Shown here: positions 15,601-56,527 of the stretch, piece after piece
How the letters are laid out: each line of letters begins with the position of its first letter
Numbering within the stretch: the stretch's first letter is position 1
Assembly (NCBI GenBank): GCA_018242365.1
Contig: JAFECB010000006.1
Coordinates: 816 to 64,815 of the forward strand
DNA length: 64,000 bases
Reading direction: 5' to 3'
Origin: Pseudomonadota bacterium
GTDB taxonomy: Bacteria > Pseudomonadota > Gammaproteobacteria > Xanthomonadales > Xanthomonadaceae
The notes under the pieces: generated by a model
The model's input: the letters and a program-made list of their open reading frames with translations, nothing else
Databases searched by the model: none
What the model was told of the DNA's origin: nothing
Program-made: the position numbers and the translations under genes

Positions 15601-15729
15601 GAACGGCGGATCCTCGGATTGACCAAGCTGGCGATACGACCAGATGCCGGCGAATGCGACCACCAGCATGATGAACAGCACCAGCGCGCGGTTGCGCAGC
15701 GACCACTCGGAGGCGTTGAACCCGGCCAT
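12604..15729 (-). CDS. RND (HAE1-type, AcrB/MdtB-like) efflux permease
   Basis: 1041 aa. The translation starts MAGFNASEWSLRNRALVLFIMLVVAFAGIWSY...SEDPPFTFK, has a twelve-TM/two-loop architecture, and ends ...FFLPALYAAWYRV, all typical of RND permeases. Confidence 0.9.
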   Translation of the reverse strand: MAGFNASEWSLRNRALVLFIMLVVAFAGIWSYRQLGQSEDPPFTFKAMVVRTLWPGATAEQVGREVTERVEKAVMSTGQYEFIRSYSRPGESQVIVMARDSMPSKDVPELWYQVRKKVGDIRPTLPAEVVGPFFNDEFGDTFGNIYALTAPGFDYAQMKDYAERIQLELQRVPDVEKVELIGLQDEKIWIDLSNTRLATLGIPLAAVKQALDEQNAMVPAGFFETGSDRIQLRVDGQFDSVEQIRAFPIAAGGRTVRLGDIASVRRGFADPAKPKMRFMGQDAIGIAVAMRKGGDIIRLGDALDAAFTRLQSTLPVGMQLGKVSDQPATVHEAVGEFVRVLAEAVAIVLLVSFFSLGLRTGTVVAVSIPLVLAMTFATMHLFDIGLHKISLGALVLALGLLVDDAIIAVEMMAIKMEQGYSRLKAASFAWESTAFPMLTGTLVTAAGFLPIATAQSSTGEYTRSLFQVVTIALLVSWIAAVLFIPWLGDRMLPDLHAATRAPTLMERLRARLSGSTAVAVTHDDHDPYATPFYRTLRGWIDACLRHRWWVIGGTILLFVGSLALARFVPQQFFPNSVRPELMVDLELAEGSSLRATEVQARRLEAMLKRRPGIENYVAYVGTGSPRFYLPLDQQLPAANFSQFVVLAKDLDAREATRRWLIDEVAPQFHDLQFRVTRLENGPPVGYPIQFRVSGEDIGQVQAIARQVAEQVRRNPHTANVNLDWSEPSKVIRLHIDQDRARALGVSSAGLAKFLSGSLSGLSVSTYREDNELVEILLRGTGEERARPDLLASLAVPTPGGSVPLAQIATLEYGFEDGIIWHRNRLPTVTVRADLNTDALTPPTVIDAILPALKPIRAALPEGYLLETGGTVEDSARGQNSIKAGMPLFLLVVVTLLMLQLRSFSQTALVLLTAPLGLIGVVLALLIFQVPFGFVALLGTIALSGMIMRNSVILVDQIRQDLEAGHDRWHAIVDATVRRFRPIVLTALAAILAMIPLSRSAFYGAMAVAIMGGLAAATLLTLFFLPALYAAWYRVRADEARR

Positions 15730-15732
15730 CGC

Positions 15733-16821
15733 TCAGCGCGCCTTGCCGTCGTTCGAAATCGCGACCGGACGATTGCGGCGATCGACCGCATGCACCGCTT
15801 CGCCCTCGTGCAGCAGATGGCCGCCTGCCGCCACCACCCAATCACCCGGCTGCACGCCAGCGAGCACCGGTACGCTGTCGTCGCCGAACGGGCCCACCCG
15901 CACCGCGCGCTTGCGCACGTGGCCACTGGCATCGACCACCCACACCATCGCCGCCTCGCCCACATCACCTTGTACCGCCGCCATCGGCAGGCGCAGCACC
16001 GACTGTGCATGATCGCCGACGATGAAGACGCGCATGCTCTGGCCGAGTTCGACCTGCGTGGCCGCATCGCCATCCAGCGCGATCTTGGCGTTGTAGGTGC
16101 GGGTTTGCGGATCGGAGGCCGCGGCGATTTCCCGGATGTGGCCCGACAGGCGCGTGCCCGGCGCATTCCATGGTTCGATGATGGCCTGCTGCCCGGTCTG
16201 GAAGTCACGGATGCGCGCTTCCGGCAAATTGATGACCACGTCGCGGCCACCGTCACCGGCGAGCACGAACACCGGTTGCCCGGCTGCCACCACTTGCCCG
16301 GCTTCGGCCTGACGACTGGCGATCACGCCATCGTCCGGTGCCCGTAGCTGGGTGTAGGCACCCTGATTGCGCATCAAATCGTACTTGGCATGCGCGGCGA
16401 CGAAGGCGGCCTGCTGCGCATCGAGGGCCGACTTGCTGACCAGTTGCTGCGCTTGCAGGGTGCGATAGCGCGCAAGGTCGCCGCCAAGCCGATCCATGTC
16501 GGCCTTGGCTGCGGCCATCTGCAATTGGGCATCGCCGGCATCCAGTTCGGCCAACAACTGGCCACGGCGCACCCGATCCCCATTGCCGACCAGTCGCCGC
16601 AGCAGATTGCCACCGACGCGGAACGACAGCTGGGCTTCCCGCTGCGCGCGCACCTCGCCGGCAAACGCAGCACCATCCATGCCCGGTGCCGCGCCGGGCT
16701 GCACCACCAGCACCGTGCGCACGCTGGTGGGCGGTGTTTGCGTGCCGCCGCAAGCGGCCAACACCACCAGCAAGCCCACCACCAGCGCAGCCTTGCCCCG
16801 ACACATCCCGATCCGCTTCAT
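15733..16821 (-). CDS. RND efflux membrane-fusion (periplasmic adaptor) lipoprotein
   Basis: 362 aa with a lipobox (LAAC). The barrel-sandwich/coiled-coil pattern includes RVGGNLLRRLVGNGDRVRRGQLLAELD and TQLRAPDDGVI. There are 3 nt between its stop and the RND ATG. Confidence 0.85.
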   Translation of the reverse strand: MKRIGMCRGKAALVVGLLVVLAACGGTQTPPTSVRTVLVVQPGAAPGMDGAAFAGEVRAQREAQLSFRVGGNLLRRLVGNGDRVRRGQLLAELDAGDAQLQMAAAKADMDRLGGDLARYRTLQAQQLVSKSALDAQQAAFVAAHAKYDLMRNQGAYTQLRAPDDGVIASRQAEAGQVVAAGQPVFVLAGDGGRDVVINLPEARIRDFQTGQQAIIEPWNAPGTRLSGHIREIAAASDPQTRTYNAKIALDGDAATQVELGQSMRVFIVGDHAQSVLRLPMAAVQGDVGEAAMVWVVDASGHVRKRAVRVGPFGDDSVPVLAGVQPGDWVVAAGGHLLHEGEAVHAVDRRNRPVAISNDGKAR

Positions 16822-16865
16822 GCCTGCCCCGTCGACCCGCGTAAAAATTGAACCGGCCGGTATGG

Positions 16866-16871
16866 TATAAT
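16866..16871 (+). promoter_or_regulatory. Consensus TATAAT -10 hexamer in the divergent TetR/efflux spacer
   Basis: A perfect TATAAT lies 32 nt upstream of the TetR ATG (16903), within the 81-nt spacer shared with the MFP-RND operon. The -35 is poor. Confidence 0.35.
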
Positions 16872-16902
16872 TGGCGAACCGAGTAGTCCACTATTTGATG
16901 CC

Positions 16903-17544
16903 ATGCAGCGCAACGCACCCCCCAAGAGCGCGACCCCCGGACGCCCGAAGGACCCCGCCAAGCGCGCGGCCATCCTTGCCGCGGCCACCCGGCTGTTCCC
17001 GTTGGAGGGCTTCGAGCGGGTCAGCATGGACCAGATCGCGGCCGAAGCAGGCGTCTCCAAACTCACCGTCTACAGCCATTTCGGCGACAAGGACGGCCTG
17101 TTCGCCGAAGCCGTGCGCGCGCACTGCGAACACGGCATGCCAACCAGGTTGTTCGACCCCCGCCCGAACGTGCCGCTGAAGCGCCGCCTGACCGAGATCG
17201 GCACCGCCTTCTGCGCGATGGTGATGAGCCCCGAGGCCATCGCCGGTTTCCGCATCCTGTGCTCGCCGCAGGCGATGGCCAGCGGGCTGCCGACGCTGGC
17301 GTGGGAGGCTGGGCCCCGCCGCGTGCAGGAGGCCTTTGCCGCCCTGCTGGAGCGGCGGATCGCCAGTGGCGAATTGGAGATCGACGATCCTGCGATGGCG
17401 GCCACGCACTTCTTCACCTTGCTCAAGGGCGAGCCCCACGCCTGCGCCCTGATCGGCGTGAGCTGCTGCAAGGCCCTGCCAACACCCAAGGCCCACGTCG
17501 CCAGCGTCGTCGACCTGTTCCTGCGCGCCTATGCGCGGCGCTGA
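16903..17544 (+). CDS. TetR/AcrR-family transcriptional repressor
   Basis: The N-terminal HTH is RAAILAAATRLFPLEGFERVSMDQIAAEAGVSKLTVYSHFGDKDGLF. It is divergent from the efflux operon. Confidence 0.9.
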   Translation: MQRNAPPKSATPGRPKDPAKRAAILAAATRLFPLEGFERVSMDQIAAEAGVSKLTVYSHFGDKDGLFAEAVRAHCEHGMPTRLFDPRPNVPLKRRLTEIGTAFCAMVMSPEAIAGFRILCSPQAMASGLPTLAWEAGPRRVQEAFAALLERRIASGELEIDDPAMAATHFFTLLKGEPHACALIGVSCCKALPTPKAHVASVVDLFLRAYARR

Positions 17545-45754: not shown

Positions 45755-46099
45755 CTAATGATCCGCGCGGTCACGCTTCCAGCCGCGGTGGCGGATGTCC
45801 AGGTACAGGCTGTAGCAGGCGGTGAAGCTGGGGAACAGGTTCTGCAGGATGCCGACCGAATCGTTCTTGCCGAAGATGAAGTAGCTGAGCGTCATCAGGC
45901 TGCCCAGGATGCTCATGTACCAGAACAGCCGCGGGATGACGGGTTTGCCGTAACGGCGGCTGGCGATGAACTGCACCACCCAGCGGCCGCCGAACATCAG
46001 CGCGCCGGTCAGGCCGACCAGCTTCCACGGGCTCATGTGGATGCCGGTCCACGCCAATGCCGCGATTGGCGTGTCCATGAAGCCGATGGGCGCGAACAT
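45755..46099 (-). CDS. Lipid-A-disaccharide-synthase N-terminal (LAB_N) domain membrane protein
   Basis: From ATG 46099 the sequence WKLVGLTGALMFGGRWVVQFIASRRYGKPVIPRLFWYMSILGSLMTLSYFIF is the LAB_N signature. Its start shares 1 nt with the GT2 stop. Confidence 0.7.
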   Translation of the reverse strand: MFAPIGFMDTPIAALAWTGIHMSPWKLVGLTGALMFGGRWVVQFIASRRYGKPVIPRLFWYMSILGSLMTLSYFIFGKNDSVGILQNLFPSFTACYSLYLDIRHRGWKRDRADH

Positions 46100-46854
46100 C
46101 ACGGCTGCACGTCTTCGACGGCGGTACGACGATTGCGTGCAATCAGCCAGCGCACGCCGATCAAATCGCGTACGCCGACGATGGCACGGCCGAGGTTGTT
46201 GTATTTCGAGACTCCGGCGGTGCGGTGGCGATGGTTGACCGGCACGCTGACGGTCCGCCAGCCGGCGCGCTGCATCAGGGCCGGCAGGTAGCGGTGCATG
46301 TGGTCGAAATACGGCAGGTCGAGGAAGGCCTCGCGCTCGAACAACTTGATCCCGCAGCCGGTATCCGGGGTGGCGTCGCGCAGCAGGCTGGCGCGGATGC
46401 CGTTGGCGAATTTCGAGGCCCAGCGCTTGCTGCCGGAATCCTTGCGCTGGGTGCGCCAGCCGGCGAACAACTTCACCTCGGTCGCTGCCGATGCACGTTG
46501 TTCCAGCAATTTCGGAATATCCGCCGGATCGTTCTGCCCATCGCCATCGAGGGTTGCAATCCATGGCGCACGCGCGGCTTTCACGCCGTTGCGCACTGCC
46601 GTGCTCTGGCCGGCGTTGACGAGATGACGAATCACACGCAGTTCGGGCGTGGTTGTCTGCAGCGCCTGCAGTCGTGACAAGGTGGCATCGCGCGACGCGT
46701 CATCGACATAGATGATCTCGAATGCGATGCGGCCGCGCAGCGCCGACAGGATTTCGCCAACCAGCGTCGCCACGTTGTCCTCTTCGTTGCAGACCGGGAC
46801 GACCACGGCGAGTTGCGGTGCAGGGTTCATGGCGGATGCTGGATTGATCGGCAT
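46099..46854 (-). CDS. Family 2 glycosyltransferase (polyprenyl-phosphate sugar transferase, ArnC/DPM1-like)
   Basis: Motifs are AVVVPVCNEEDN, IIYVDDASRD, TLDGDGQNDP and the Q/RxxRW-like region. The start is ambiguous among GTG 46863, ATG 46854 and ATG 46830. Confidence 0.8.
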   Translation of the reverse strand: MPINPASAMNPAPQLAVVVPVCNEEDNVATLVGEILSALRGRIAFEIIYVDDASRDATLSRLQALQTTTPELRVIRHLVNAGQSTAVRNGVKAARAPWIATLDGDGQNDPADIPKLLEQRASAATEVKLFAGWRTQRKDSGSKRWASKFANGIRASLLRDATPDTGCGIKLFEREAFLDLPYFDHMHRYLPALMQRAGWRTVSVPVNHRHRTAGVSKYNNLGRAIVGVRDLIGVRWLIARNRRTAVEDVQP

Positions 46855-46866
46855 GTCCTGCACGGC

Positions 46867-48279
46867 TCAGCGCACGATCAAGTCGATCAGCCACTTGGCC
46901 TTGGCATACGGCGGCTTGAGCATGTCGCCGCCGGTGCGCCCGGATTGCCAGAACACCGGCAGCTGCTTGCTCATCGCATCGAAGCCGGCGCGGCCATGGT
47001 AGGCCCCCATGCCGCTGGCACCGACGCCGCCGAAGGGCAGCGAGGTGATCGCGAAATGGGTCAGGGTGTCGTTGACCGAGACGCCGCCGGCGAGCGTGTC
47101 CCGGAGGATGCGTTCGATACTGCGGCGATCATTGCTGAACGGGTACAGCGCCAACGGACGCTCGCGCGCATTGATGAAGGCAATGGCCTCGTCGAGCGTG
47201 CGGTAACCCTTGATCGGCAGCAGCGGGCCGAAGATCTCCTCCTGCATGATCCGGGCATCATCCGGCGGATCCAGCAACAGGGTCGGCGGCATCACCCGCT
47301 GGTCAGGGTCGGGTTGGCCCGCCAGGGTGACGCGTTCGACCTTGTGCTCGCGGGCATCGTCCAGATAGCCACGCAAACGCGCGAATTGGGCGTCATTGAT
47401 GATGCGGGTGTAGTCGTCGAGGTTGTCGAGCTTCTCGCCGTAGCGCTGCTGGACTTCCTTGCGCAGCGCAGCCACCAGCGCATCGCGCTTGGCCTTGGGC
47501 ACCAGCACGTAATCGGGGGCGATGCAGGTCTGCCCGCAGTTCAGCCATTTGCCGGTGGCGATCCTCGCGGCGGCTTTCTCGATCGGGAAATCGTCGCAGA
47601 TCAGCACCGGCGATTTGCCGCCCAGTTCCAGTGTCAGCGGGGTCAGGTTGGGGGAGGCGGCGGCCATCACCTTGCGGCCGACCGCGGTCGAGCCAGTGAA
47701 CACCAGGTGATCGAACGGCAGGGACGCGAAGGCCGAGCCGACGTCGGCATCGCCCAGTGCGAGCGAGACGCGGTCTTCCGGAAAAGTGGAGTTGAGCAGG
47801 TCGCGCAGGAAGGCGCTGGTGCGCGGGGTGTGCTCGGACGGCTTGAGGAAGACGTGGTTGCCGGCCGCAATCGCGGTGGCGAGCGGGATCAGGGCGAGGT
47901 TGACCGGGTAGTTCCACGGTGCGATCACGCCGACCACGCCCAACGGCATCGCCCGCACCTGGGCGCTGCCGGGCCAGAACCGCCAGCCGGGGCTGGCGCG
48001 GCGCGGGCGCATCCAACTGCGCAGGTGCCCCAGCAGGTGGTCGATGTCGGTCAGCGCGGTCATGCCATCGGCGACCCGCGATTCGTCCAGTGAACGATGG
48101 CCGAAATCGCTGGCGATGATCTTCGTCATCTCATCAAGCCTGCGCTTGAGGTTGGCGCGCAGGCGCGACAGGTCGTCGTGGCGTTGCCGGTAATCCGGCT
48201 TGTTCGCCTGCCAACTGGCGCGCAGGCGATCTAGGGTGGGCTGCAGCGAGGAAACCGGGGTGGCGGGAATGCGATCCAT
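46867..48279 (-). CDS. NAD(P)-dependent aldehyde dehydrogenase (class 3 / coniferyl- or fatty-aldehyde DH-like)
   Basis: 470 aa. Motifs are VIAPWNYPVNL, FTGSTAVGRKV, the catalytic LELGGKSP and NCGQTCIAPDY, and EEIFGPLLPI. Confidence 0.85.
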   Translation of the reverse strand: MDRIPATPVSSLQPTLDRLRASWQANKPDYRQRHDDLSRLRANLKRRLDEMTKIIASDFGHRSLDESRVADGMTALTDIDHLLGHLRSWMRPRRASPGWRFWPGSAQVRAMPLGVVGVIAPWNYPVNLALIPLATAIAAGNHVFLKPSEHTPRTSAFLRDLLNSTFPEDRVSLALGDADVGSAFASLPFDHLVFTGSTAVGRKVMAAASPNLTPLTLELGGKSPVLICDDFPIEKAAARIATGKWLNCGQTCIAPDYVLVPKAKRDALVAALRKEVQQRYGEKLDNLDDYTRIINDAQFARLRGYLDDAREHKVERVTLAGQPDPDQRVMPPTLLLDPPDDARIMQEEIFGPLLPIKGYRTLDEAIAFINARERPLALYPFSNDRRSIERILRDTLAGGVSVNDTLTHFAITSLPFGGVGASGMGAYHGRAGFDAMSKQLPVFWQSGRTGGDMLKPPYAKAKWLIDLIVR

Positions 48280-48386
48280 GCGCGGCAGTGTAGTGGCAGA
48301 CCATGCGCCGGGGAATGGCTTGTGCCATGCGGCTGGCCACGCGCCGATGGGCGGCGCGGAAGGGGCACACAGGCTAGAATCCGGAC

Positions 48387-48938
48387 ATGCACATTCGTCC
48401 CTACCGCGACCACGTTCCGGTCATCGGCCAGCGCGTCTACCTCGATCCGATGGCGGTGGTCGTGGGTGACGTGGAACTGGGCGATGACGTGTCGATCTGG
48501 CCGTTCACCGTGGTCCGCGGTGATGTCAATTTCGTCCGTATCGGCGACCGCAGCAATATCCAGGACGGCACCGTCATCCATGTCAGCCACGATGGCCCGC
48601 ACCTGCGGCGCGGCGGCTTTGCCACCCGGATTGGAAGTGACGTCACCATCGGCCACAAGGCGATTATCCATGCCTGCACCATCGAAGACGCGGCGCTGAT
48701 CGGGATGGGCGCGGTCATTCTGGATGGCGCGGTGGTGAAGAAGCACGGCTTCGTCGGCGCCGGCGCGCTGGTCTCGCCGGGCAAGGTGGTGGGCGAAGGC
48801 GAACTGTGGCTGGGCAATCCGGCGAAGAAGGTGCGGCAGTTGTCCGAGACCGAGATCGAGGCCCTGTACTACAGCGCCGGCCACTATGTGCGGCTGAAGG
48901 ACGAGTACCTGGCCGTCGGAATCGGTACAGGCCGCTGA
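48387..48938 (+). CDS. Left-handed beta-helix (gamma-carbonic-anhydrase/YrdA-like) protein
   Basis: 183 aa with hexapeptide repeats and the pattern VVVGDVELGDDVSIWPFTVVRGDVNFVRIGDRSNIQDGTVIH. Its stop overlaps the next ATG (TGATG). Confidence 0.8.
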   Translation: MHIRPYRDHVPVIGQRVYLDPMAVVVGDVELGDDVSIWPFTVVRGDVNFVRIGDRSNIQDGTVIHVSHDGPHLRRGGFATRIGSDVTIGHKAIIHACTIEDAALIGMGAVILDGAVVKKHGFVGAGALVSPGKVVGEGELWLGNPAKKVRQLSETEIEALYYSAGHYVRLKDEYLAVGIGTGR

Positions 48939-49618
48939 TGCTGGATACCGTTCGCGTCGTCGATACCCCCGAGGGGATTGCCCTGCGCCTGCCAGCCGCC
49001 GGGCCGATGCCGCGCGCCTTGGCGTGGTGCATCGATCTGGTGATCCGCTTCGGCATCCTGTGGGCGTTTTCGATGGTGCTGGCCCTGCTCGGCAAGAGTG
49101 GCATGGGCCTGTATCTGGTGTTGTTGTTCCTGGTGTTCTGGGGCTACCCGATCCTGTGCGAAGGCCTGTGGAACGGGCAGACGCCGGGCAAGCGCGCGCT
49201 CGGCCTGCGCGTGGTGGCCGGAGACGGCGCGCCGGTGGGCTGGCTGGCGGCGATCGTGCGCAACCTGATGCGCACCGTGGACATGCTGCCATTGGGCTAC
49301 GCCTGCGGCCTTGTCAGCAGCCTTGCCGATCCCTGGGGGCGGCGACTCGGCGATCTGGTGGCGGGGACGCTGGTGGTGCATGTGCGGATGCTGCAACCTC
49401 TGCCGGCCGTGCATGCGGTGGACGCGCACGCGCCGCAAGTGGCGTTGCGCCCGGAAGACCAGGTTGCGGTGCTTGCGTTTGCGGAGCGCGCGCCGCGGCT
49501 CACGCTCGAACGGCAGATGGAGCTGGCCGACATCGTCGCGCCGATGACCGGTGCGCGCCGCGAGGATGGCGTCGTCCGCCTGGCCGGCATCGCGCGCTGG
49601 CTGTCGGGGCGGGACTGA
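48938..49618 (+). CDS. RDD-family membrane protein
   Basis: From ATG 48938: PRALAWCIDLVIRFGILWAF..., GQTPGKRALGLRVV and VRNLMRTVDMLP give the RDD pattern with three TM helices, plus a roughly 80-aa soluble tail. Confidence 0.75.
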   Translation: MLDTVRVVDTPEGIALRLPAAGPMPRALAWCIDLVIRFGILWAFSMVLALLGKSGMGLYLVLLFLVFWGYPILCEGLWNGQTPGKRALGLRVVAGDGAPVGWLAAIVRNLMRTVDMLPLGYACGLVSSLADPWGRRLGDLVAGTLVVHVRMLQPLPAVHAVDAHAPQVALRPEDQVAVLAFAERAPRLTLERQMELADIVAPMTGARREDGVVRLAGIARWLSGRD

Positions 49619-49624
49619 GCACGG

Positions 49625-50617
49625 ATGCGACAGGAACAATTCATCGCCCACCACCAGCAGGAATGGGCCGACTTCGAGCGCTGGCTGGACGCACGTAGCG
49701 CCCGACCGCGCAAGGCACGCGGCGATATCCACTGGCGCGGGCTGGCCGATGTCGAGGTACCGGCGGTCTATCGGCGGCTGGCGCGGCAACTCGGGCTGGC
49801 GCGGCGACGCGGCTACAGCCCGCTGCTGCAGGAACGCCTGCAGCTGCTGGTGCAACGCGGCCACGACGTGCTGTACCGGCCACCGCTGCCGCGTTGGCAA
49901 CGCGCGGTCGAATTCTTCATCGCCGATTTCCCGCGCTTGGTGCGTTCCGAATCCGGCGTGATGCTGGCCTCGCTGTTGCTGTTCGTGGTGCCCCTGGTCG
50001 CCAGTTTCGTGGCCCTGCAATACAAGCCGGAATTGATCCACACCCTGATGCCGCCGGACCAGGTGGCGGACTGGGAGCAGATGTACGCCAAGGCCGCGCA
50101 GAAAGTGGGCCGCGACTCCGGCAGTGATCTGGCGATGTTCGGCTTCTACATCTTCAACAACATCAGTATTGGCCTGCGCACCTATGCCAGCGGCTTGCTG
50201 GCGGGGATCGGGCCGGTACTGACCATCGCCTTCAACGGGGTGATGATCGGGATGGTGGCAGGTCACCTGCAGAACGTCGGCCTTGGCGACACGTTCTGGC
50301 GTTTCGCGGTGGGTCACGCCGCATTCGAATTGACCGCCATCGTCATATCCGGTGCTGCGGGCCTGCGCCTGAGCCTGGCCTTGCTGGCACCGGGCCGGCG
50401 GCGGCGCGTCGATGCCTTGATCGAAGATGGCCGGCGCGGCGCGATGCTGTGCCTGGGCGTGTTCTTCATGCTGGTGGTGGCGGCCTTCATCGAAGCATTC
50501 TGGTCGTCGATCAACTGGATCCCGGCTGGCGTCAAATACGGCGTCGCCGCGCTGCTGTGGACGCTGGTGCTGGCATGGCTGGCGCTGGGCGGGAGGGATC
50601 GCGATGCGGCTCGATGA
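49625..50617 (+). CDS. SpoIIM-like (stage II sporulation protein M family) polytopic membrane protein
   Basis: 330 aa. It has a soluble N-terminal region of about 100 aa, then helices with the typical FIFNNISIGLRTYA...NGVMIGMV...HAAFELTAIVISGAAGL. Confidence 0.7.
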   Translation: MRQEQFIAHHQQEWADFERWLDARSARPRKARGDIHWRGLADVEVPAVYRRLARQLGLARRRGYSPLLQERLQLLVQRGHDVLYRPPLPRWQRAVEFFIADFPRLVRSESGVMLASLLLFVVPLVASFVALQYKPELIHTLMPPDQVADWEQMYAKAAQKVGRDSGSDLAMFGFYIFNNISIGLRTYASGLLAGIGPVLTIAFNGVMIGMVAGHLQNVGLGDTFWRFAVGHAAFELTAIVISGAAGLRLSLALLAPGRRRRVDALIEDGRRGAMLCLGVFFMLVVAAFIEAFWSSINWIPAGVKYGVAALLWTLVLAWLALGGRDRDAAR

Positions 50618-52151
50618 GCTGAGCGTCGAGCTGCGCCCGCGCAGCGCATGGGAAGCGGTGGAATTGGGCACCGCGCTCGTGCGTCGCCATGCCGGCGCGA
50701 TCTGGCGGCCGTGGCTGTGGGTGACGTTGCCGATCTTCGTCATCCTCAATGCCGTGGGCTGGGCGCTGGACAGGGTGTGGTTGGCGGCGCTGCTGATGTG
50801 GTGGGCCAAGCCCTTGTTCGACCGCATCCCGCTGTACGTGATGTCGCGCGCGGTGTTCGGTGCCGCGCCCGGCCCCCGCGAGACCGTGCGCGCGCATTGG
50901 CGCTGGGGCATCAAGCCGATGCTTGGCTACATGACGTGGCGAAGGCTGGGCGCGGTGCGTTCGCTGTACCTGCCGATCGACCTGCTGGAGGGCGGGCCAC
51001 GTCCGGCACAGCGGCGCAGCATCGTCGGCAGCGGCGTGCGTGGAACCGCCGCGCTGGTGACGCTGGTATGCGCCAATTTCGAAGCAGTACTGGTGTTCGG
51101 CGTCTATGTGCTGGCGCTGATGTTCGTGCCTGTGGAATTGATGACCGAATCCGCGCGCGCAGCCTGGACATTGCTGACCGAATCACCGCCGCGCTGGGTG
51201 CAATTGCTCGGCAACATCGTGGCGTGGGCGGCGACCAGCGTGATCGAGCCGTTCTACGTCGGTGCCGGTTTCGGTCTGTATCTGGACCGCCGCACCCGGA
51301 TCGAAGCCTGGGACGTGGAGATCGCATTTCGTCGCCTGCATGCGCGCCTGTTGGGTGCGGGCGTGGCGCTGCTGTGCCTGTTCGCGCTGGCGTTGCCGGC
51401 ATTTGCCCAAGGTGGGCAGGATGTGGAGGCACGAAATTCGGCATCCACGCCCGCTGTGACCGACGCCACCCCAGCGGCCAAGCCCGCGCCCGGATTGGAT
51501 GTGATCTTCGGACGGGTGGACGAGGATCCCGGATTCGCGCGCGCCGCCGGCCGGCTTGGCGAGGATCCGCTGCTGAATCCCAAGCGCACCGTCTCCGAGT
51601 GGGTGCGCCGGCATCCGAACGAGGAGCAGACCCAGCTGCCGGACATGCCGTGGCTGCAAGCCATCGCCAAGGCCATCGCCGCGATCGCGCAATACGGCCT
51701 GTGGATCCTGCTGGGCGTCCTGGTCATCCTGCTGGCAGCGACCTACCGCACGTGGATGCCCTGGCTCAGCGGGATGGCGCCACGCAAGCAGCCGGTGCCG
51801 GTCCCGATCGAGCACGACCCGCACGCCGAAGCCGAGCCACTGCCCGATGACGTGATGGCGCGCGCGCGCGCGCTGTGGGCCGAAGGCCAGCCGCGTCGCG
51901 CCCTGTCCTTGCTGTACCGCGCCAGCGTCGCGGCGATGGTCGCGCGCACCGGCGTGTTGCTGGTGCCCGGTGCCACCGAAGCGCAATGCCTGCGCGCCTC
52001 GCGCAGCCTGGGCGAGGAAGAGGACCGCTCTGCATTCGCGCGGATGGTGCGCACCTGGCAATACGCCGCCTATGCCGAGCGCATGCCCGACGCGGCCGAA
52101 TTCGACAGCCTGCTGGTCACGCTGGGCCGACGCTTCGGGTGGTCGGCATGA
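50604..52151 (+). CDS. Polytopic membrane protein with a C-terminal DUF4129-like domain
   Basis: ATG 50604 overlaps the SpoIIM-like gene by 14 nt. The N-terminal half has about six hydrophobic helices. It is followed by an internal signal-like segment LLGAGVALLCLFALALPAFAQG, another TM helix (GLWILLGVLVILLAATY), and a C-terminal part LYRASVAAMVARTGVLLVPGATEAQCLR...WQYAAYA that resembles DUF4129. Confidence 0.6.
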   Translation: MRLDELSVELRPRSAWEAVELGTALVRRHAGAIWRPWLWVTLPIFVILNAVGWALDRVWLAALLMWWAKPLFDRIPLYVMSRAVFGAAPGPRETVRAHWRWGIKPMLGYMTWRRLGAVRSLYLPIDLLEGGPRPAQRRSIVGSGVRGTAALVTLVCANFEAVLVFGVYVLALMFVPVELMTESARAAWTLLTESPPRWVQLLGNIVAWAATSVIEPFYVGAGFGLYLDRRTRIEAWDVEIAFRRLHARLLGAGVALLCLFALALPAFAQGGQDVEARNSASTPAVTDATPAAKPAPGLDVIFGRVDEDPGFARAAGRLGEDPLLNPKRTVSEWVRRHPNEEQTQLPDMPWLQAIAKAIAAIAQYGLWILLGVLVILLAATYRTWMPWLSGMAPRKQPVPVPIEHDPHAEAEPLPDDVMARARALWAEGQPRRALSLLYRASVAAMVARTGVLLVPGATEAQCLRASRSLGEEEDRSAFARMVRTWQYAAYAERMPDAAEFDSLLVTLGRRFGWSA

Positions 52152-53278
52152 GCCGGCGCGGGCAATCGCTTGCATGGCTGGGAGGCTTGTTGCTGCTGGG
52201 CCTGCTGGTGGCGTGGTTCTTCGTGACTTTCAAACGGGTCGATCGCAGCGTGAACCTGCCGCCGCGCGGCGAGGCCAGCTTCAATCCGCTGTACGCGCTC
52301 AAGCAGGTGTTGCGCGCGGATGGCCAGCCGGTGCTGTCACGGCAACGCCTGCAACTCGACACCATCCCGCTGGGGCGGCGCGATACCGTTGTGATCCACG
52401 GCGATCCGCGCACACTCACCGGCGCCGATCTTGATCGCTTGATGGGGTTCGCCGAGACCGGCGGCCATGTGGTGCTGCAGCTGCCGCCATGGAGTGAAAG
52501 CGGCAATCAGAACGGCGCAGCGGCACTGGCGGGCCGCCTGCCGATCCTGCCGGGCCTGCGTGAGCCCGCCTGCCTGTTGCTGCGCTGGCCGGACAAGACG
52601 ACACACAGGCTGTTCTGTGGTGCGCCGCGCTTTGCGCTCAAGGGCTCGCCGAAGCTGCTGGCGGGGTGGGAACCGGACGACGGTGCCGGTCATGTGTACG
52701 CCCGCTTCCAGATCGGCGAAGGCAGCGTGGACCTGCTGTCGGAGTTCGACGCGCTGACCAATGAAGGCCTGCAGTTGCCGCGGAATGCGGCGTTCACGCG
52801 CCAGCTGCTGGCACCGAACTGGGGCGCAGGCACCATCCACCTGATTTATGCCGCTGACGTGCCGCCGCTGTGGCGTTGGTTGCTGGAACACGGTTGGCGC
52901 GCGCTGTTGCCGGCCTTCCTGTGCCTGCTGCTGTGGCTGTGGATGCGCGCCCAGCAGTTCGGGCCACTTTTGCCGGCGCCGCAACCGCCGCGTCGCTCCC
53001 TGCTGGAACACCTGGAAGCCAGCGGCGAGCATCTGCTGCGCTATGGCCACTTGGGCGCGCTGCATCGTGCCCTGCTGAAGGCGGTGCATGAGCGCCTGCG
53101 TCGGCGCGATCCACTCGCCGCCGCGCTGGAAGGCGAGACCCAGGCCGCCCTGATCGGCAAGCGCACCGGCCTGCCCGCCAATGACGTGCGCGTGATCCTG
53201 GACACCCGCCCGCCACGCGACGCCCACGATTTCCGCCACCGCATCGCCCGCTTGATCGATTTGAGGAAACGCCTATGA
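52148..53278 (+). CDS. DUF4350-like bitopic membrane protein
   Basis: An ATGA overlap joins it to the upstream gene. It has an N-terminal TM helix (LAWLGGLLLLGLLVAWFFV), an extracytoplasmic domain (FNPLYALKQVL...VVIHGDP...GGHVVLQLPPW), a second TM helix near residue 300, and a cytoplasmic tail. Confidence 0.6.
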   Translation: MSRRGQSLAWLGGLLLLGLLVAWFFVTFKRVDRSVNLPPRGEASFNPLYALKQVLRADGQPVLSRQRLQLDTIPLGRRDTVVIHGDPRTLTGADLDRLMGFAETGGHVVLQLPPWSESGNQNGAAALAGRLPILPGLREPACLLLRWPDKTTHRLFCGAPRFALKGSPKLLAGWEPDDGAGHVYARFQIGEGSVDLLSEFDALTNEGLQLPRNAAFTRQLLAPNWGAGTIHLIYAADVPPLWRWLLEHGWRALLPAFLCLLLWLWMRAQQFGPLLPAPQPPRRSLLEHLEASGEHLLRYGHLGALHRALLKAVHERLRRRDPLAAALEGETQAALIGKRTGLPANDVRVILDTRPPRDAHDFRHRIARLIDLRKRL

Positions 53279-54267
53279 ACACGCCGTCCCTGCCCCCCGT
53301 GCCGCCGCCGGTCGGTGCCGCCCTCAGTACCCGCGTCAGTGCGATCCGCGACGCCGTCGGCAAGGCCTTCATCGGCCAGCCCGAGGTGCTCGATCAGGTG
53401 ATGATCGCCCTGCTCGCCGGCGGCCATGTCCTGCTGGAAGGCGTGCCCGGGCTCGGCAAGACCCTGTTGGTGCGCGCGCTGGCGCAGGCGCTCGACTGCC
53501 AGCACGCACGCGTGCAGTTCACCCCCGACCTGATGCCCAGCGACATCAGCGGGCATGCGGTGTACGACCCGAAAACCGAGCGCTTCGAAGTGCGCAAGGG
53601 TCCCGTGTTCACCCATCTGCTGCTGGCCGATGAGATCAACCGCGCTCCGGCCAAGACCCAATCGGCGCTGCTGGAGGCGATGCAGGAACAGCAAGTCACC
53701 ATCGAAGGCGAAAGTTTCGCACTGCCCTCGCCATTCCTGTGCCTGGCCACGCAGAACCCGCTGGAGCTGGAGGGCACCTATCCGCTGCCGGAAGCCCAGC
53801 TCGATCGTTTCCTGCTCAAGGTGCTGATCGGCTATCCCGGCATCGAGGACGAAAAGCGCATGGTCGCCGCGGTCAGCGAGGGCCGCACCGCCGCTGAGTT
53901 CGACCTGTCGCAGGTGCAGCGGGTGATCGGCAGCGAAGACGTGCGCGCGCTGCAGATCGGCACCGCGCTGGTGCGGGTCGATCCAGCGGTGCTCGACTAC
54001 GCGGTGCGGATCGCGGCGGCGACCCGCAAATGGCCCGGTATTGCCCTCGGCGCCGGGCCGCGCGGCAGCATTGCACTGGTGCGCGCCGCGCGTGCGCAGG
54101 CGGTATTGTCCGAGCGCGATTTCGTCACCCCGGATGACGTCCGCGAGATCGCCTTGCCCTGCCTGCGCCACCGCATCCAGCTCGCGCCGGAATTGCACAT
54201 CGAAGGCCAGGCGGTGGATGAGGTGCTGCGCGCTCTGCTGGCCAAGGTGGACGCGCCACGCCAGTGA
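53275..54267 (+). CDS. MoxR-family AAA+ ATPase
   Basis: Walker A is LLEGVPGLGKT and Walker B is LLLADEINRAPAKTQSALLEAMQE. Also present are QNPLELEGTYPLPEAQLDRF and the C-terminal lid. It has an ATGA overlap with the upstream gene. Confidence 0.92.
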   Translation: MNTPSLPPVPPPVGAALSTRVSAIRDAVGKAFIGQPEVLDQVMIALLAGGHVLLEGVPGLGKTLLVRALAQALDCQHARVQFTPDLMPSDISGHAVYDPKTERFEVRKGPVFTHLLLADEINRAPAKTQSALLEAMQEQQVTIEGESFALPSPFLCLATQNPLELEGTYPLPEAQLDRFLLKVLIGYPGIEDEKRMVAAVSEGRTAAEFDLSQVQRVIGSEDVRALQIGTALVRVDPAVLDYAVRIAAATRKWPGIALGAGPRGSIALVRAARAQAVLSERDFVTPDDVREIALPCLRHRIQLAPELHIEGQAVDEVLRALLAKVDAPRQ

Positions 54268-55565
54268 GACCGACGCTGGCCCTGATCGGGATGCTGGCAG
54301 GCTGGGCATTGCTCGGCCTGGCGGTCAGCTTCGACCTGCTGCCTGCTGACGCATGGGCATTGGGCGGTGTGTTGCTGGCCTTGCTGGCATTGGCCGACGC
54401 CACCGTCGTATGGCGACAGCCGCCACCCGAGGTACAGCGGCGTCTGCCCGACGTGCTGGCGGTCGGTGTCGAACGCGAGGTCGAACTGATGCTGGTCGCG
54501 GGAACGCGGCGACAGGCGATGGACGTGTTCGACCTGCATCCGGTCGGTTGGGAATGCAGTGGGCTGCCGCGCCACGTTGACCTGCTGCCCGGCAGTGACA
54601 CGCGCCTGTCGTATCGGCTGCGCCCGGTCGAACGCGGGGATGCCGAGTTCGCCGGTGTGCACCTGCGCCTGTACTCGCCGCTGCGGCTGTGGCGTCGCCG
54701 GTGCAACGTGGCGCCTGCGCAGGCGGTGCGGGTGTTTCCGAACTTCGCGCCGTTGGCCAAATTGGCCCTGCTCGGCGATGAGCAGGCTTCGCGTGCGGTC
54801 GGCGCGCATGTGCGGCGACGGCGCGGCGAGGGCACCGATTTCCACCAGATGCGCGATTACCGCGTCGGCGACAGCCTGCGCCAGATCGACTGGAAAGCGA
54901 CCGCGCGGATGCGCCGGCTGATCTCGCGCGAATATCAGGACGAACGCAACCAGCATCTGGTGATGCTGGTCGATACCGGCCAGCGCATGCTGGCGCGCGA
55001 CGGAACGCTCTCGCATTTCGACCAGACCCTCGATGCCGCCTTGGTGGTGTCGTGGCTGGCCTTGCGCCAGGGCGATGCGGTCGGCCTGCTGGCCCACGGC
55101 GGACCGCGTCGCTGGGTGCCGCCGCAGCGGGGCGCCGGTGCCATCGACATGATGCTGCGGCAAACCTACGACCTGCAGCCAACGCCGGTGGCCACCGACT
55201 ATCTTGCGGCGGCCACCGAGCTCACCCTGCGCCAACGCCGCCGCAGCCTGGTGATGCTGGTCACCAATCTGCGCGACGAGGACAGCGAAGACCTGCTCGC
55301 TGCGGTGCGGCTGCTGCGCCAACGCCACCACGTGGTGATCGCCAGCCTGCGCGAGCAGGTGCTCGATCAAGCCCTGGACGACGAGGCGCGCGACCTGCGC
55401 GGTGCCCTGCGCGCGGCCTCCGCCGCCCGCTATCTGCAGCAACGCGCTGCGGCCCACGATGCGCTGCGCGCCCACCACGTCGCCGTGCTCGATGTCACCT
55501 GCGCCGAACTACCCGGCGCGCTGGTCGAGCGCTATCTGGCGATCAAGCGGGAAGGCTTGTTGTAA
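54264..55565 (+). CDS. DUF58 (vWA-like, MoxR-partner) protein with two N-terminal TM helices
   Basis: The GTG start forms a GTGA overlap with the moxR stop. It has the DUF58 hallmark GEGTDFHQMRDYRVGDSLRQIDWKATARMRRLISREYQDE, then VMLVDTGQRM (degenerate MIDAS region). Confidence 0.85.
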   Translation: MRPTLALIGMLAGWALLGLAVSFDLLPADAWALGGVLLALLALADATVVWRQPPPEVQRRLPDVLAVGVEREVELMLVAGTRRQAMDVFDLHPVGWECSGLPRHVDLLPGSDTRLSYRLRPVERGDAEFAGVHLRLYSPLRLWRRRCNVAPAQAVRVFPNFAPLAKLALLGDEQASRAVGAHVRRRRGEGTDFHQMRDYRVGDSLRQIDWKATARMRRLISREYQDERNQHLVMLVDTGQRMLARDGTLSHFDQTLDAALVVSWLALRQGDAVGLLAHGGPRRWVPPQRGAGAIDMMLRQTYDLQPTPVATDYLAAATELTLRQRRRSLVMLVTNLRDEDSEDLLAAVRLLRQRHHVVIASLREQVLDQALDDEARDLRGALRAASAARYLQQRAAAHDALRAHHVAVLDVTCAELPGALVERYLAIKREGLL

Positions 55566-55592
55566 GGCGGGAGCACGACGCCGTTGCGGCGC

Positions 55593-56426
55593 TCAGTCCG
55601 CGGTGAACAGCGCCGCCGAGCGCGCTGACAGCTGCGCGAACACGGCTTCGGTCTCCGGGCGGACGCCGTGCCAGAGCAGGAAGCTTTCCGCGGCCTGTTC
55701 GACCAGCATGCCGAGCCCATCGACGGCCATCGTGCAGCCAGCGGCGCGGGCCCAGGCGAGGAATGGCACGGCGACTTCGCCATAGCTCAGGTCGACCGCG
55801 ATACTGCGTTTCTCCGCCAATGCCATCGGCAGTTTCAGCATCTCGCCGGCATGGAAGGCGGAGGTGGCATTGATCAGCAGGTCATAGCTGCCCAGCTTCG
55901 GCAACGCATCCCAGCCACGGGCATGCACGCGGGCGGGTTCGCCCAAGGCATCGGCCAGCGCATCGGCGCGTTCGCGGGTGCGATTGACGATCATCAGTTC
56001 GCGGATGCCGGCGTCGAGCAGCGCCGGCGTGACTCCGCGCGCGGCACCGCCAGCGCCCAGCATCAGCACTCGCCGTTGGCGCAGGTCGATGCCGTGGCGT
56101 TCGGTGAGGTCGCGGACCAGGCCGATGCCGTCGGTGTTGTCGCCGCGCCAGCCCTCGTCGTCGCGGACCAGGGTGTTGACCGCGCGGGCACGTTGCGCGC
56201 GCGTGCTGACCCGATCACCGCACAGGGCGAATGCCACTTCCTTGAGCGGCAGAGTGATGTTGGCGCCATCGACGCCACTGGCGGCAAGCTTGCCGGCGAA
56301 ATCCTCCGGCCCTGCTTCGATGGCGGTGTAGTCGAGCGCGATGCGGGCTTGCTTCGCAAATGCCGCGTGGATGAAGGGTGATTGCGAGTGGGTAATCGGA
56401 GAGCCGAAGACTGCGTAGCGTTGCAT
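55593..56426 (-). CDS. aroE: Shikimate dehydrogenase
   Basis: ATG 56426 (GGAGG upstream) starts [24 protein letters not shown]. Other motifs are NITLPLK, NTDGIG and [12 protein letters not shown]. The track's 16-aa extension comes from the REP repeat. Confidence 0.9.
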
Positions 56427-56461
56427 GAAGTCCTCCCGGGTCGTTGCCAAATCCTCGATCT

Positions 56462-56527
56462 TGTAGGAGCGCACCGCAGGGGCGCGACACGTTCCACAAC
56501 ATCGCGCCCCTGCGGTGCGCTCCTACA
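56462..56527. repeat. REPIN-like doublet: two GTAG-type REP copies in inverted orientation
   Basis: TGTAGGAGCGCACCGCAGGGGCGCGAC (56462-56488) and its inverted copy ATCGCGCCCCTGCGGTGCGCTCCTACA (56501-56527) are separated by 12 nt. They lie between the aroE start and the hemB stop (56531). Confidence 0.9.

Follow-up and report, generated by a model that had tools for sequence, protein, structure and literature searches.

The stretch of DNA analysed here (the window) comprises 64,000 nucleotides (nt) of contig JAFECB010000006.1, from a gammaproteobacterial assembly of the Xanthomonadaceae (GCA_018242365.1). Between positions 48387 and 55565 it carries seven genes on one strand. Genes 2–7 form a module around a MoxR-type AAA+ ATPase and a DUF58 protein. 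This module is real and widespread, an uncharacterised variant of the MoxR–vWA kind and a conserved unknown that will not surprise specialists; gene 1 is a YrdA orthologue at its upstream side. The seven genes are as follows (lengths in amino acids, aa):

48387–48938, plus strand: gene 1, 183 aa, YrdA orthologue, left-handed beta-helix / gamma-carbonic-anhydrase-like
48938–49618, plus strand: gene 2, 226 aa, RDD-family membrane protein
49625–50617, plus strand: gene 3, 330 aa, SpoIIM-family polytopic membrane protein
50604–52151, plus strand: gene 4, 515 aa, polytopic protein with a C-terminal DUF4129
52148–53278, plus strand: gene 5, 376 aa, bitopic DUF4350 protein
53275–54267, plus strand: gene 6, 330 aa, MoxR-type AAA+ ATPase
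54264–55565, plus strand: gene 7, 433 aa, DUF58 protein with an N-terminal transmembrane hairpin

The original prediction, made from the sequence alone, had described these genes as a tightly coupled series, and the open reading frames (ORFs) agree with it at each of the six junctions. Genes 1 and 2 share the sequence TGATG (48936–48940), a 6-nt gap (49619–49624) lies between genes 2 and 3, and genes 3 and 4 overlap by 14 nt (50604–50617). The next two junctions, between genes 4 and 5 and between genes 5 and 6, are both ATGA (52148–52151 and 53275–53278), and genes 6 and 7 overlap by 4 nt at GTGA (54264–54267). For three contigs of identical sequence, public gene calls made independently yield these seven products too. 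Because the high GC content of the window (65–70%) yields long spurious ORFs on both strands, the coding frames were checked separately. In the called frames of genes 1–7, the GC content is 0.82–0.87 at third codon positions and 0.41–0.52 at second positions, values that are consistent with real coding frames at a genomic GC content of 67%, and a homologue or Pfam domain was found for each of the seven products. NCBIfam holds no model for genes 2–5 or gene 7.

Profile hidden Markov model searches with Pfam upheld every domain assignment that had been proposed, with DUF4129 falling just under the cut-off, and the suggested MoxR/DUF58 core is borne out by AAA_3 and DUF58 matches in adjacent genes. 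Hydropathy likewise agrees that five of the seven products (those of genes 2, 3, 4, 5 and 7) are integral membrane proteins.

Six genes in two conserved blocks

A scan of one genome per species returned at least 596 related loci; for the 80 best of these, six-frame ORFs were searched with the seven window proteins. In 61 of the 80 loci, which span Lysobacterales, Pseudomonas, Chromatiaceae, Woeseiaceae and Cellvibrionaceae, genes 2–7 are colinear and share a strand, and their order is the same in all loci that show the six genes (61/61). The other 19 loci comprise 16 that are cut by contig ends, one betaproteobacterial locus (L068) with a run of Ns and two Pseudomonas loci that end after gene 5. 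L068, considered as an exception lacking gene 5, was rejected as such: it carries all six genes, with gene 5 split by the N run. In P. alliivorans (L059), genes 6 and 7 do not follow gene 5. The same is true of P. serbiensis (L079), where three same-strand ORFs of 381, 560 and 460 aa (12965–17168) lie directly after gene 5, the first of them with a domain of the phage-integrase (tyrosine recombinase) type; at this locus, the module appears to have been interrupted by a mobile element. In all related loci with enough DNA, the MoxR and DUF58 genes are neighbours. This arrangement of genes 2–7 is far beyond chance, and the comparison of loci shows the module to be a vertically inherited set of six genes. 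One metagenome-assembled genome of Dokdonella sp. (cluster1_bin.217) has the module on two different contigs (L040 and L043), so that either the genome has two copies or the bin is mixed.

The set also recurs well beyond close relatives: the gene-neighbourhood check that the original prediction had asked for gave a strongly positive result across four phyla. In Catenovulum (Alteromonadales), the gene order is that of the window, with junctions of −1, −11, +1, −4 and −4 nt. Plasmids of Rhizobium and Paracoccus (Alphaproteobacteria) carry the series DUF805-DUF4129-DUF4350-MoxR-DUF58-SpoIIM-RDD, in which all genes overlap or abut. On a Prevotella chromosome (Bacteroidota), an RDD gene on the minus strand is followed by SpoIIM-X-Y-DUF4350-MoxR-DUF58, and in Nocardia farcinica (Actinomycetota) the order is A-B-MoxR-DUF58, then RDD on the minus strand, then SpoIIM on the plus strand; Pfam confirmed the MoxR, DUF58, DUF4129, RDD and SpoIIM assignments in the latter. 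The module thus consists of two conserved blocks, one of the RDD and SpoIIM-like genes and one of the DUF4129 protein, DUF4350 protein, MoxR and DUF58 genes. Since the gene set stays together despite rearrangement, its members are likely to be functionally linked.

The same comparison bears on whether the blocks are two independent neighbouring systems, an RDD/SpoIIM-like one and a DUF4129/DUF4350/MoxR/DUF58 one, brought together by shared regulation or history. The blocks shift as units when the order changes, and each is found without the other: a Bernardetia sp. plasmid has a SpoIIM gene divergently paired with an RDD gene and no MoxR nearby, and a Haloarcula plasmid has DUF4129-DUF58 adjoining a MoxR-type gene and no other module member. 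However, the blocks are adjacent in four phyla and in three arrangements, often with overlapping codons at their boundary (14 nt in the window, 1 nt in Rhizobium and 4 nt in Paracoccus), and chance or regulatory adjacency rarely outlasts so much rearrangement. We consider two separate systems unlikely. The Haloarcula set, for its part, supports DUF4129 as a partner of MoxR/DUF58. The Bernardetia SpoIIM-family protein (L081:9001–10854) has 617 aa, about double the usual length, with a polytopic C-terminal extension; a reading of it as a fusion of SpoIIM with Prevotella X was rejected, the BLASTP match being non-significant (E 0.054).

The product of Nocardia gene B starts with DUF4129 (Pfam, 1.4e-11), continues with two transmembrane helices joined by a short Pro/Gly linker and ends in a tail of the gene 5 type (7.7e-12), with no DUF4350 periplasmic domain; that domain is therefore dispensable in this lineage. 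The fusion places DUF4129 and the gene 5-type tail both on the side of the N-terminus. Gene A shares with gene 4 two end motifs, (I/L)RP... and Y-x-[DN]-x-R-x-x-x-E-G-[WM]-D-I, which is suggestive of a relationship to the gene 4 N-terminal domain. Homology was not accepted as proven, the colinear profile match being weak (E about 0.03, one target). Unlike in gene 4 of the window, a gene 4-type N-terminal domain and DUF4129 would here reside on separate proteins. Just upstream of the N. farcinica module, on the same strand, lies a gene for a DUF4407 protein (L090:2737–4470; Pfam, 1.1e-55).

The alphaproteobacterial DUF4129 proteins correspond to only the C-terminal half of gene 4, with a signal peptide, the linker, a transmembrane helix and DUF4129 (E 2.3e-11 and 1.1e-7). 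One or two DUF805 genes lie directly upstream of the DUF4129 gene (L082:3332–4415 and L092:3024–3464), with an 8-nt overlap in Paracoccus; DUF805 proteins may replace the gene 4 N-terminal membrane domain that is absent from this version. For Prevotella, X (336 aa) and Y (204 aa) were tried as the two parts of a split gene 4, but profile comparisons were not significant and the two are equivalent to it in position only; a database search with X returned only near-identical Prevotella proteins. A further copy of the module, with 50–56% protein identity to the gammaproteobacterial one, is present on plasmid pCff1 of the actinobacterium Curtobacterium flaccumfaciens (L085, NZ_CP045288.2:131256–147310). 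It is broken into many short gene calls and was set aside as probable assembly contamination or a decayed (horizontal) transfer.

Proteins of the module

Topology was assigned from hydropathy and charge, supplemented with AlphaFold monomer models for genes 4 and 5. Gene 2 encodes an RDD protein (Pfam, 2.8e-18) with its hydrophobic segments in the N-terminal half, followed by a soluble C-terminal region of ~80 aa, and in related loci it invariably adjoins the SpoIIM-like gene. The latter, gene 3, matches SpoIIM (PF01944, formerly DUF95) with an E-value of 2.8e-36. Its product starts with an Arg/Lys-rich domain of ~110 aa that is presumed to be cytoplasmic, and the public gene table assigns this N-terminal part to the newer Pfam family DUF8413.

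The product of gene 4 consists of an N-terminal helical membrane domain (residues 1–250), a variable periplasmic linker of ~90 aa, a last transmembrane helix and a DUF4129 bundle. The DUF4129 match (PF13559, residues 437–503) has an E-value of 3.4e-5 and scores 24.3 bits against a cut-off of 24.8, and many full-length homologues carry a precomputed PF13559 match. The AlphaFold model is all-helical (mean predicted local distance difference test score, pLDDT, 79.7), with a confident N-terminal membrane domain, a disordered linker and a five-helix DUF4129 bundle. Residues R11, R13, R114, R119, E129, R137, R230, E234, W236, D237 and R248 are invariant; the polar ones among them are predicted to lie in Arg-rich loops and juxtamembrane helices that, by the positive-inside rule, would face the cytoplasm. 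For the N-terminal domain, there was no significant fold match in the PDB (best E 0.46) and no sequence match among solved structures. A resemblance of the DUF4129 bundle to HEPN-type folds (E about 0.8) was taken as generic and rejected. When clustered at 50% identity, the gene 4 family numbers 2823 clusters for E up to 0.001 and 1168 for E up to 1e-30, and the full ~500-aa architecture is retained down to about 30% identity. Near-identical metagenomic copies aside, the nearest relatives come from Thermomonas and Pseudoxanthomonas, at no more than about 66% identity, which assigns the window to an uncultured member of the Lysobacteraceae.

Gene 5 encodes a DUF4350 protein (Pfam, 2e-11) in which a transmembrane helix (3–27), a periplasmic alpha/beta domain, a second transmembrane helix (about 241–270) and a cytoplasmic helical tail follow one another. 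Its model has a pLDDT of 83.8 and was built on a shallower alignment, of proteins 47–81% identical. Fold matches of the periplasmic domain are to the non-catalytic 'trimerisation' domain of GH42/GH164 enzymes (E 1.7e-6) and to the GIFT domain of IFT52 (E 2e-3), and the GIFT-type match agrees with the link to GldG published for arCOG01314 (PMC5898192). The best-conserved motif of the protein, FGP...RRxLLEHxxAxG, lies in the tail; comparison of the tail with DUF4129 by hhalign gave no homology (E 0.13).

The MoxR protein encoded by gene 6 is the most conserved of the module. It matches AAA_3 (2.2e-64) and AAA_lid_2 (3.3e-22), with a secondary match to bpMoxR (7.8e-12), and carries the Walker A motif GVPGLGKT and the Walker B motif LLADEINR. 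Its closest solved relative is 2R44 (E 4.8e-77), deposited as an uncharacterised protein. The gene 7 product matches DUF58 (1.9e-31) and, under the cut-off, VWA_2 (2.5e-4; 22 versus 27 bits); no solved relative was found for it by sequence. By hydropathy, an N-terminal transmembrane hairpin is followed by a vWA-like domain on the side of the N-terminus, which is taken as cytoplasmic. At the MIDAS (metal ion-dependent adhesion site) position, the window protein reads D-T-G-Q-R-M. Aligned DUF58 proteins of the module from three phyla have DxG[RK]xM at this position in 21 of 22 cases and DCSRRM in the remaining one, and the canonical DxSxS occurs in none of the 22.

Working model and relation to known systems

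The mycobacterial region Rv3689–Rv3695 (moxR2 region) contains the same families, by the annotation table of PMC8191103: RDD (Rv3695), SpoIIM-like (Rv3694c), DUF58 (Rv3693), MoxR (Rv3692) and a protein named for DUF4350 (Rv3691). This region and the Nocardia locus are likewise uncharacterised, and both differ from the window module in gene order and strands. In M. chelonae, the orthologues of five module genes (Rv3691–Rv3695) drop together 6- to 8-fold in one RNA sequencing comparison (PMC8191103), and in M. tuberculosis Rv3694c (SpoIIM-like) and Rv3695 (RDD) co-purified with the divisome-associated protein Rv0954 in a co-immunoprecipitation (PMC8093794). SpoIIM itself serves in Bacillus as a membrane scaffold for peptidoglycan hydrolases (summarised in PMC5898192).

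MoxR ATPases are established to work through vWA adaptors, as in CbbQ/CbbO, NorQ/NorD and RavA/ViaA (cited in PMC11834572 and PMC12067865). In each of these, a MoxR hexamer and a vWA adaptor encoded by the adjacent gene act on a specific client complex, and genes 6 and 7 show the same gene pairing. However, the known pairs grip their client through a canonical MIDAS, and that client is an enzyme, whereas in the window module the MIDAS is replaced, the adaptor has a membrane anchor and four non-enzymatic membrane proteins are presumed to be the clients.

By analogy with these pairs, we propose that a membrane-tethered MoxR/DUF58 pair works from the cytoplasmic face on the membrane proteins encoded with it, a reading to which we give an even chance. 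The DUF58 protein would hold the MoxR hexamer at the inner membrane, with its transmembrane hairpin as the anchor and its vWA-like domain directed toward the cytoplasm, and would act as the adaptor that delivers MoxR to specific clients. These clients would be the co-encoded membrane proteins, gripped through their conserved cytoplasmic parts; in gene 4, MoxR would contact the DUF4129 bundle and the loops rich in Arg and Glu within the N-terminal domain, and in the DUF4350 protein the helical tail. ATP-driven remodelling would then switch a membrane complex with a SpoIIM-like/RDD platform, or drive its assembly or disassembly, and, where it is present, the GIFT/GldG-like periplasmic domain of the DUF4350 protein would change its oligomeric or binding state. 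The output would likely be cell-envelope biogenesis, a link suggested by the SpoIIM scaffold analogy, the co-immunoprecipitation of Rv3694c and Rv3695 with Rv0954 and the GIFT/GldG-like periplasmic domain.

Several observations weigh against this model. The MIDAS motif, which other vWA adaptors use to grip their clients, is replaced in all module members, so that the adaptor must bind differently or may be non-classical. The functions of the two blocks could be separable, given that RDD and SpoIIM occur alone in Bernardetia and DUF4129-DUF58-MoxR alone in Haloarcula. The topology underlying the model derives from hydropathy, the positive-inside rule and monomer models only, and the envelope link would stand on the analogy with SpoIIM, a single co-immunoprecipitation list and a fold match to a non-catalytic domain. 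Finally, the module encodes no enzyme, transporter or secreted substrate detectable with Pfam. The original prediction had spoken of an envelope-embedded remodelling or insertion machine; our results are consistent with such a machine, but it is toward the cytoplasm, not the envelope, that the conserved parts are predicted to point, and the periplasmic domain is missing altogether from the Nocardia version.

Secretion offers a different role for the same proteins. Makarova, Galperin and Koonin (2015) predicted that archaeal DUF4350, MoxR and vWA proteins form a secretion or membrane-remodelling complex, and already remarked on bacterial SpoIIM homologues beside vWA and COG0714 genes (PMC5898192). 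As in the window, the arCOG01314 neighbourhood places a DUF4350 protein, with an N-terminal signal/anchor, a GldG-related flavodoxin-like domain and a C-terminal transmembrane helix, beside a COG0714 MoxR and a vWA-type protein. It further contains S-layer/Ig-like membrane proteins (arCOG02884 and relatives) and a predicted secreted Ig-vWA protein, none of which Pfam detects in the window module; the latter instead has an apparently cytoplasmic, membrane-anchored DUF58 protein and adds RDD, SpoIIM-like and DUF4129 proteins. A novel secretion or transport system, in which the membrane proteins form a conduit and MoxR powers or assembles the export of a substrate encoded elsewhere, is favoured by the matching architecture of gene 5 (signal/anchor, extracytoplasmic flavodoxin-like domain, C-terminal transmembrane helix) and its GldG/IFT52 GIFT-type fold, by the four membrane proteins with no enzyme domain, and by the requirement for SpoIIM-family proteins in circular bacteriocin clusters (PMC8659200). 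Yet inspection of the bacterial loci turned up neither a gene for a substrate nor an outer-membrane component, an ABC transporter or an S-layer/Ig-like protein in or beside the module, the fold matches of the gene 4 membrane domain include no transporter-like one, and the periplasmic parts are the least conserved, with the DUF4350 periplasmic domain missing from the Nocardia version. On this evidence we regard a secretion system as improbable. The circular bacteriocin clusters of the SpoIIM/DUF95 type also differ directly from the window module: they carry genes for a precursor peptide and a transporter, whereas the window unit has no ABC transporter domain (Pfam) and no room for a bacteriocin peptide gene, because neighbouring genes either overlap or lie no more than 6 nt apart.

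The best-documented role of MoxR–vWA pairs, the maturation of an enzyme, would make the module a chaperone that loads a cofactor into, or restores the activity of, an unlinked client such as a respiratory complex, in the manner of NorQ/NorD, CoxD/CoxE and CbbQ/CbbO, with the membrane proteins serving as tethers or sensors. That the module encodes no obvious end-effector fits this idea. But the canonical metal-binding MIDAS is absent from all members, no candidate client is conserved beside the module across phyla (the flanks differ in each lineage), and four dedicated, co-inherited membrane proteins exceed what a tether needs. A maturation chaperone is accordingly a doubtful candidate, and decidedly so.

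A MoxR–vWA conflict or anti-phage system of the kind that Kaur, Burroughs, Iyer and Aravind reportedly proposed in 2020 (cited in PMC12067865) is the least supported of the rival systems and very improbable: the secondary bpMoxR match of the ATPase (7.8e-12) and a weak PADLOC match to mad8 (5e-6, AAA region only) speak for it, but the AAA_3 score is much higher than that of bpMoxR, PADLOC matches none of the five non-ATPase proteins, Pfam finds no effector, beta-propeller or nuclease domain, and the module sits in a stable housekeeping context with colinear vertical inheritance across Lysobacterales. A defence system was rejected, the PADLOC scan of the module having given weak generic AAA matches for MoxR only; the flanks are housekeeping genes.

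Other operons share parts of the module. DUF4129 is typically the C-terminal domain of transglutaminase-like membrane proteins, and TgpA itself presumably carries one. Like the window, the P. aeruginosa TgpA operon (PA2875-PA2873) and the bifidobacterial PFNA cluster have a MoxR-type ATPase, a DUF58 protein and a polytopic membrane protein, which are co-transcribed there (PMC3507681; PMC12067865). Nonetheless, none of the seven window proteins has a transglutaminase family match (Pfam, E up to 0.01), and the TgpA operon as described is without RDD, SpoIIM-like and DUF4350 partners. The Bat (Bacteroides aerotolerance) operon also has an ATPase of the MoxR-proper type followed by DUF58 and several membrane proteins. 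There, however, the MoxR-DUF58 pair is followed by BatA/BatB (vWA), TPR and BatD proteins, none of which Pfam detects in genes 1–7, and the Bat-type DUF58 protein of Bacteroides finegoldii is shorter (289 aa) and only ~25% identical, over 39% of gene 7. With the present module on a Prevotella chromosome and a classical Bat operon in B. finegoldii, the two are therefore distinct operon types. A SpoIIM-family protein (PF01944, E as given above for gene 3) is likewise what the module shares with the SpoIIM-SpoIID-SpoIIP engulfment machinery; the peptidoglycan hydrolase partners SpoIID and SpoIIP were not found in or beside the operon of the gammaproteobacterial host, in a search confined to the locus.

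The searchable literature, outside which most subscription journals lie, contains no experimental characterisation of the module or of an orthologue, in agreement with the earlier view that it has no assigned function. As far as that literature shows, several points are not in print either: the six families as one full set, the arrangement of this set in two blocks in four phyla, YrdA's place outside it, the replaced MIDAS in all members examined and the fusion of DUF4129 to the gene 5-type tail. The description of the system as 'undescribed' holds for its function but not for its neighbourhood, parts of which are in PMC5898192 and whose family names recur in Rv3689–Rv3695. The original prediction was a reasonable interpretation, over-inclusive by one gene and with its novelty slightly overstated. 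A bolder form of our model, which we hold only tentatively and think rather unlikely, would see an ancient, self-contained, AAA+-driven inner-membrane machine of undescribed kind, common to Proteobacteria, Bacteroidota and Actinomycetota including Mycobacterium tuberculosis, in which the MoxR/DUF58 motor cyclically remodels a SpoIIM-like/RDD/DUF4129/DUF4350 complex for a step in envelope growth, division or export that has gone unrecognised.

The YrdA neighbour, the borders of the unit and its significance

Gene 1 had been counted as part of a seven-gene functional unit, a claim that did not hold. Its product matches Hexapep in Pfam (8.5e-20) and shares 52% identity with E. coli YrdA (E 3e-66). 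In E. coli, yrdA on the plus strand converges on aroE on the minus strand, with no module genes between them, and the window keeps this ancestral yrdA/aroE frame with six genes inserted. In the loci examined, gene 1 stands beside the module in Lysobacteraceae only, always upstream, and its distance to gene 2 varies in this family from 3 nt to 3.4 kb. No copy of it adjoins the module in Rhodanobacteraceae, Pseudomonas, Alteromonadales, Alpha- and Betaproteobacteria, Bacteroidota or Nocardia. Its identity as YrdA, the E. coli arrangement and the variable distance to gene 2 therefore mark gene 1 as a housekeeping neighbour, and it was dropped as a component on these grounds. The comparison across loci thus indicates a functional unit of six genes (2–7) with gene 1 as a syntenic housekeeping neighbour. 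A genuine system of seven components, with bicarbonate/CO2 chemistry or acyl transfer, for example, supplied by the YrdA-like protein, might be read from the overlap of the gene 1 stop with the gene 2 start (TGATG), the gap of only 3–6 nt in the closest Thermomonas relatives and the constant upstream position throughout Lysobacteraceae; against the E. coli gene order, the wide spacing in other Lysobacteraceae and the absence from so many module loci, it is scarcely credible. In this genome, gene 1 is probably co-transcribed with the module, and transcription of the module in this lineage probably starts at the yrdA promoter.

The unit is bounded by the following features:

46867–48279, minus strand: aldehyde dehydrogenase gene, upstream boundary
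48280–48386, plus strand: divergent intergenic region between the aldehyde dehydrogenase gene (minus strand) and gene 1, sequence read directly
55593–56474, minus strand: aroE, downstream boundary, followed by hemB, also on the minus strand

Because 48280–48386 is the sole untranslated gap upstream of the unit, it is the likely promoter region; a consensus promoter scan found no site in 48000–56000, and the placement of the promoter is thus an inferred one. A promoter and terminator scan of the unit gave nothing beyond the level of shuffled sequence, and an Rfam search (E up to 0.1) gave no structured RNA in the unit and a lone chance-level microRNA match outside the operon. A TAGAAT hexamer lies 8–13 nt ahead of the gene 1 ATG (window 48374–48389) with no Shine-Dalgarno sequence between; from this spacing, the gene 1 mRNA may be leaderless or near-leaderless. 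Adjoining the aldehyde dehydrogenase gene are a glycosyltransferase family 2 gene and then a small LAB_N (lipid A biosynthesis N-terminal) gene, both on the minus strand (45755–46863). An HTH/AHSA1 pair is present between these GT2/LAB_N genes and an SDR gene on one public contig and not on another.

Few AAA+ proteins are as widespread as the MoxR ATPases, but clients are known for only a handful of the latter. The unusual feature of the module described here is that the likely clients are encoded beside the motor and co-inherited with it across phyla, which yields a defined set of six proteins. Members are found in tractable bacteria (Pseudomonas, Lysobacter and Rhizobium) and, by annotation, in M. 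tuberculosis (Rv3689–Rv3695). Even if the model is wrong, annotators learn that YrdA stands outside the system and that DUF4129 travels with MoxR/DUF58. If it is right, it would give a role to five families at once, namely RDD, non-sporulation SpoIIM, DUF4129, DUF4350 and DUF58, and would show how a vWA-like adaptor works without a MIDAS site.

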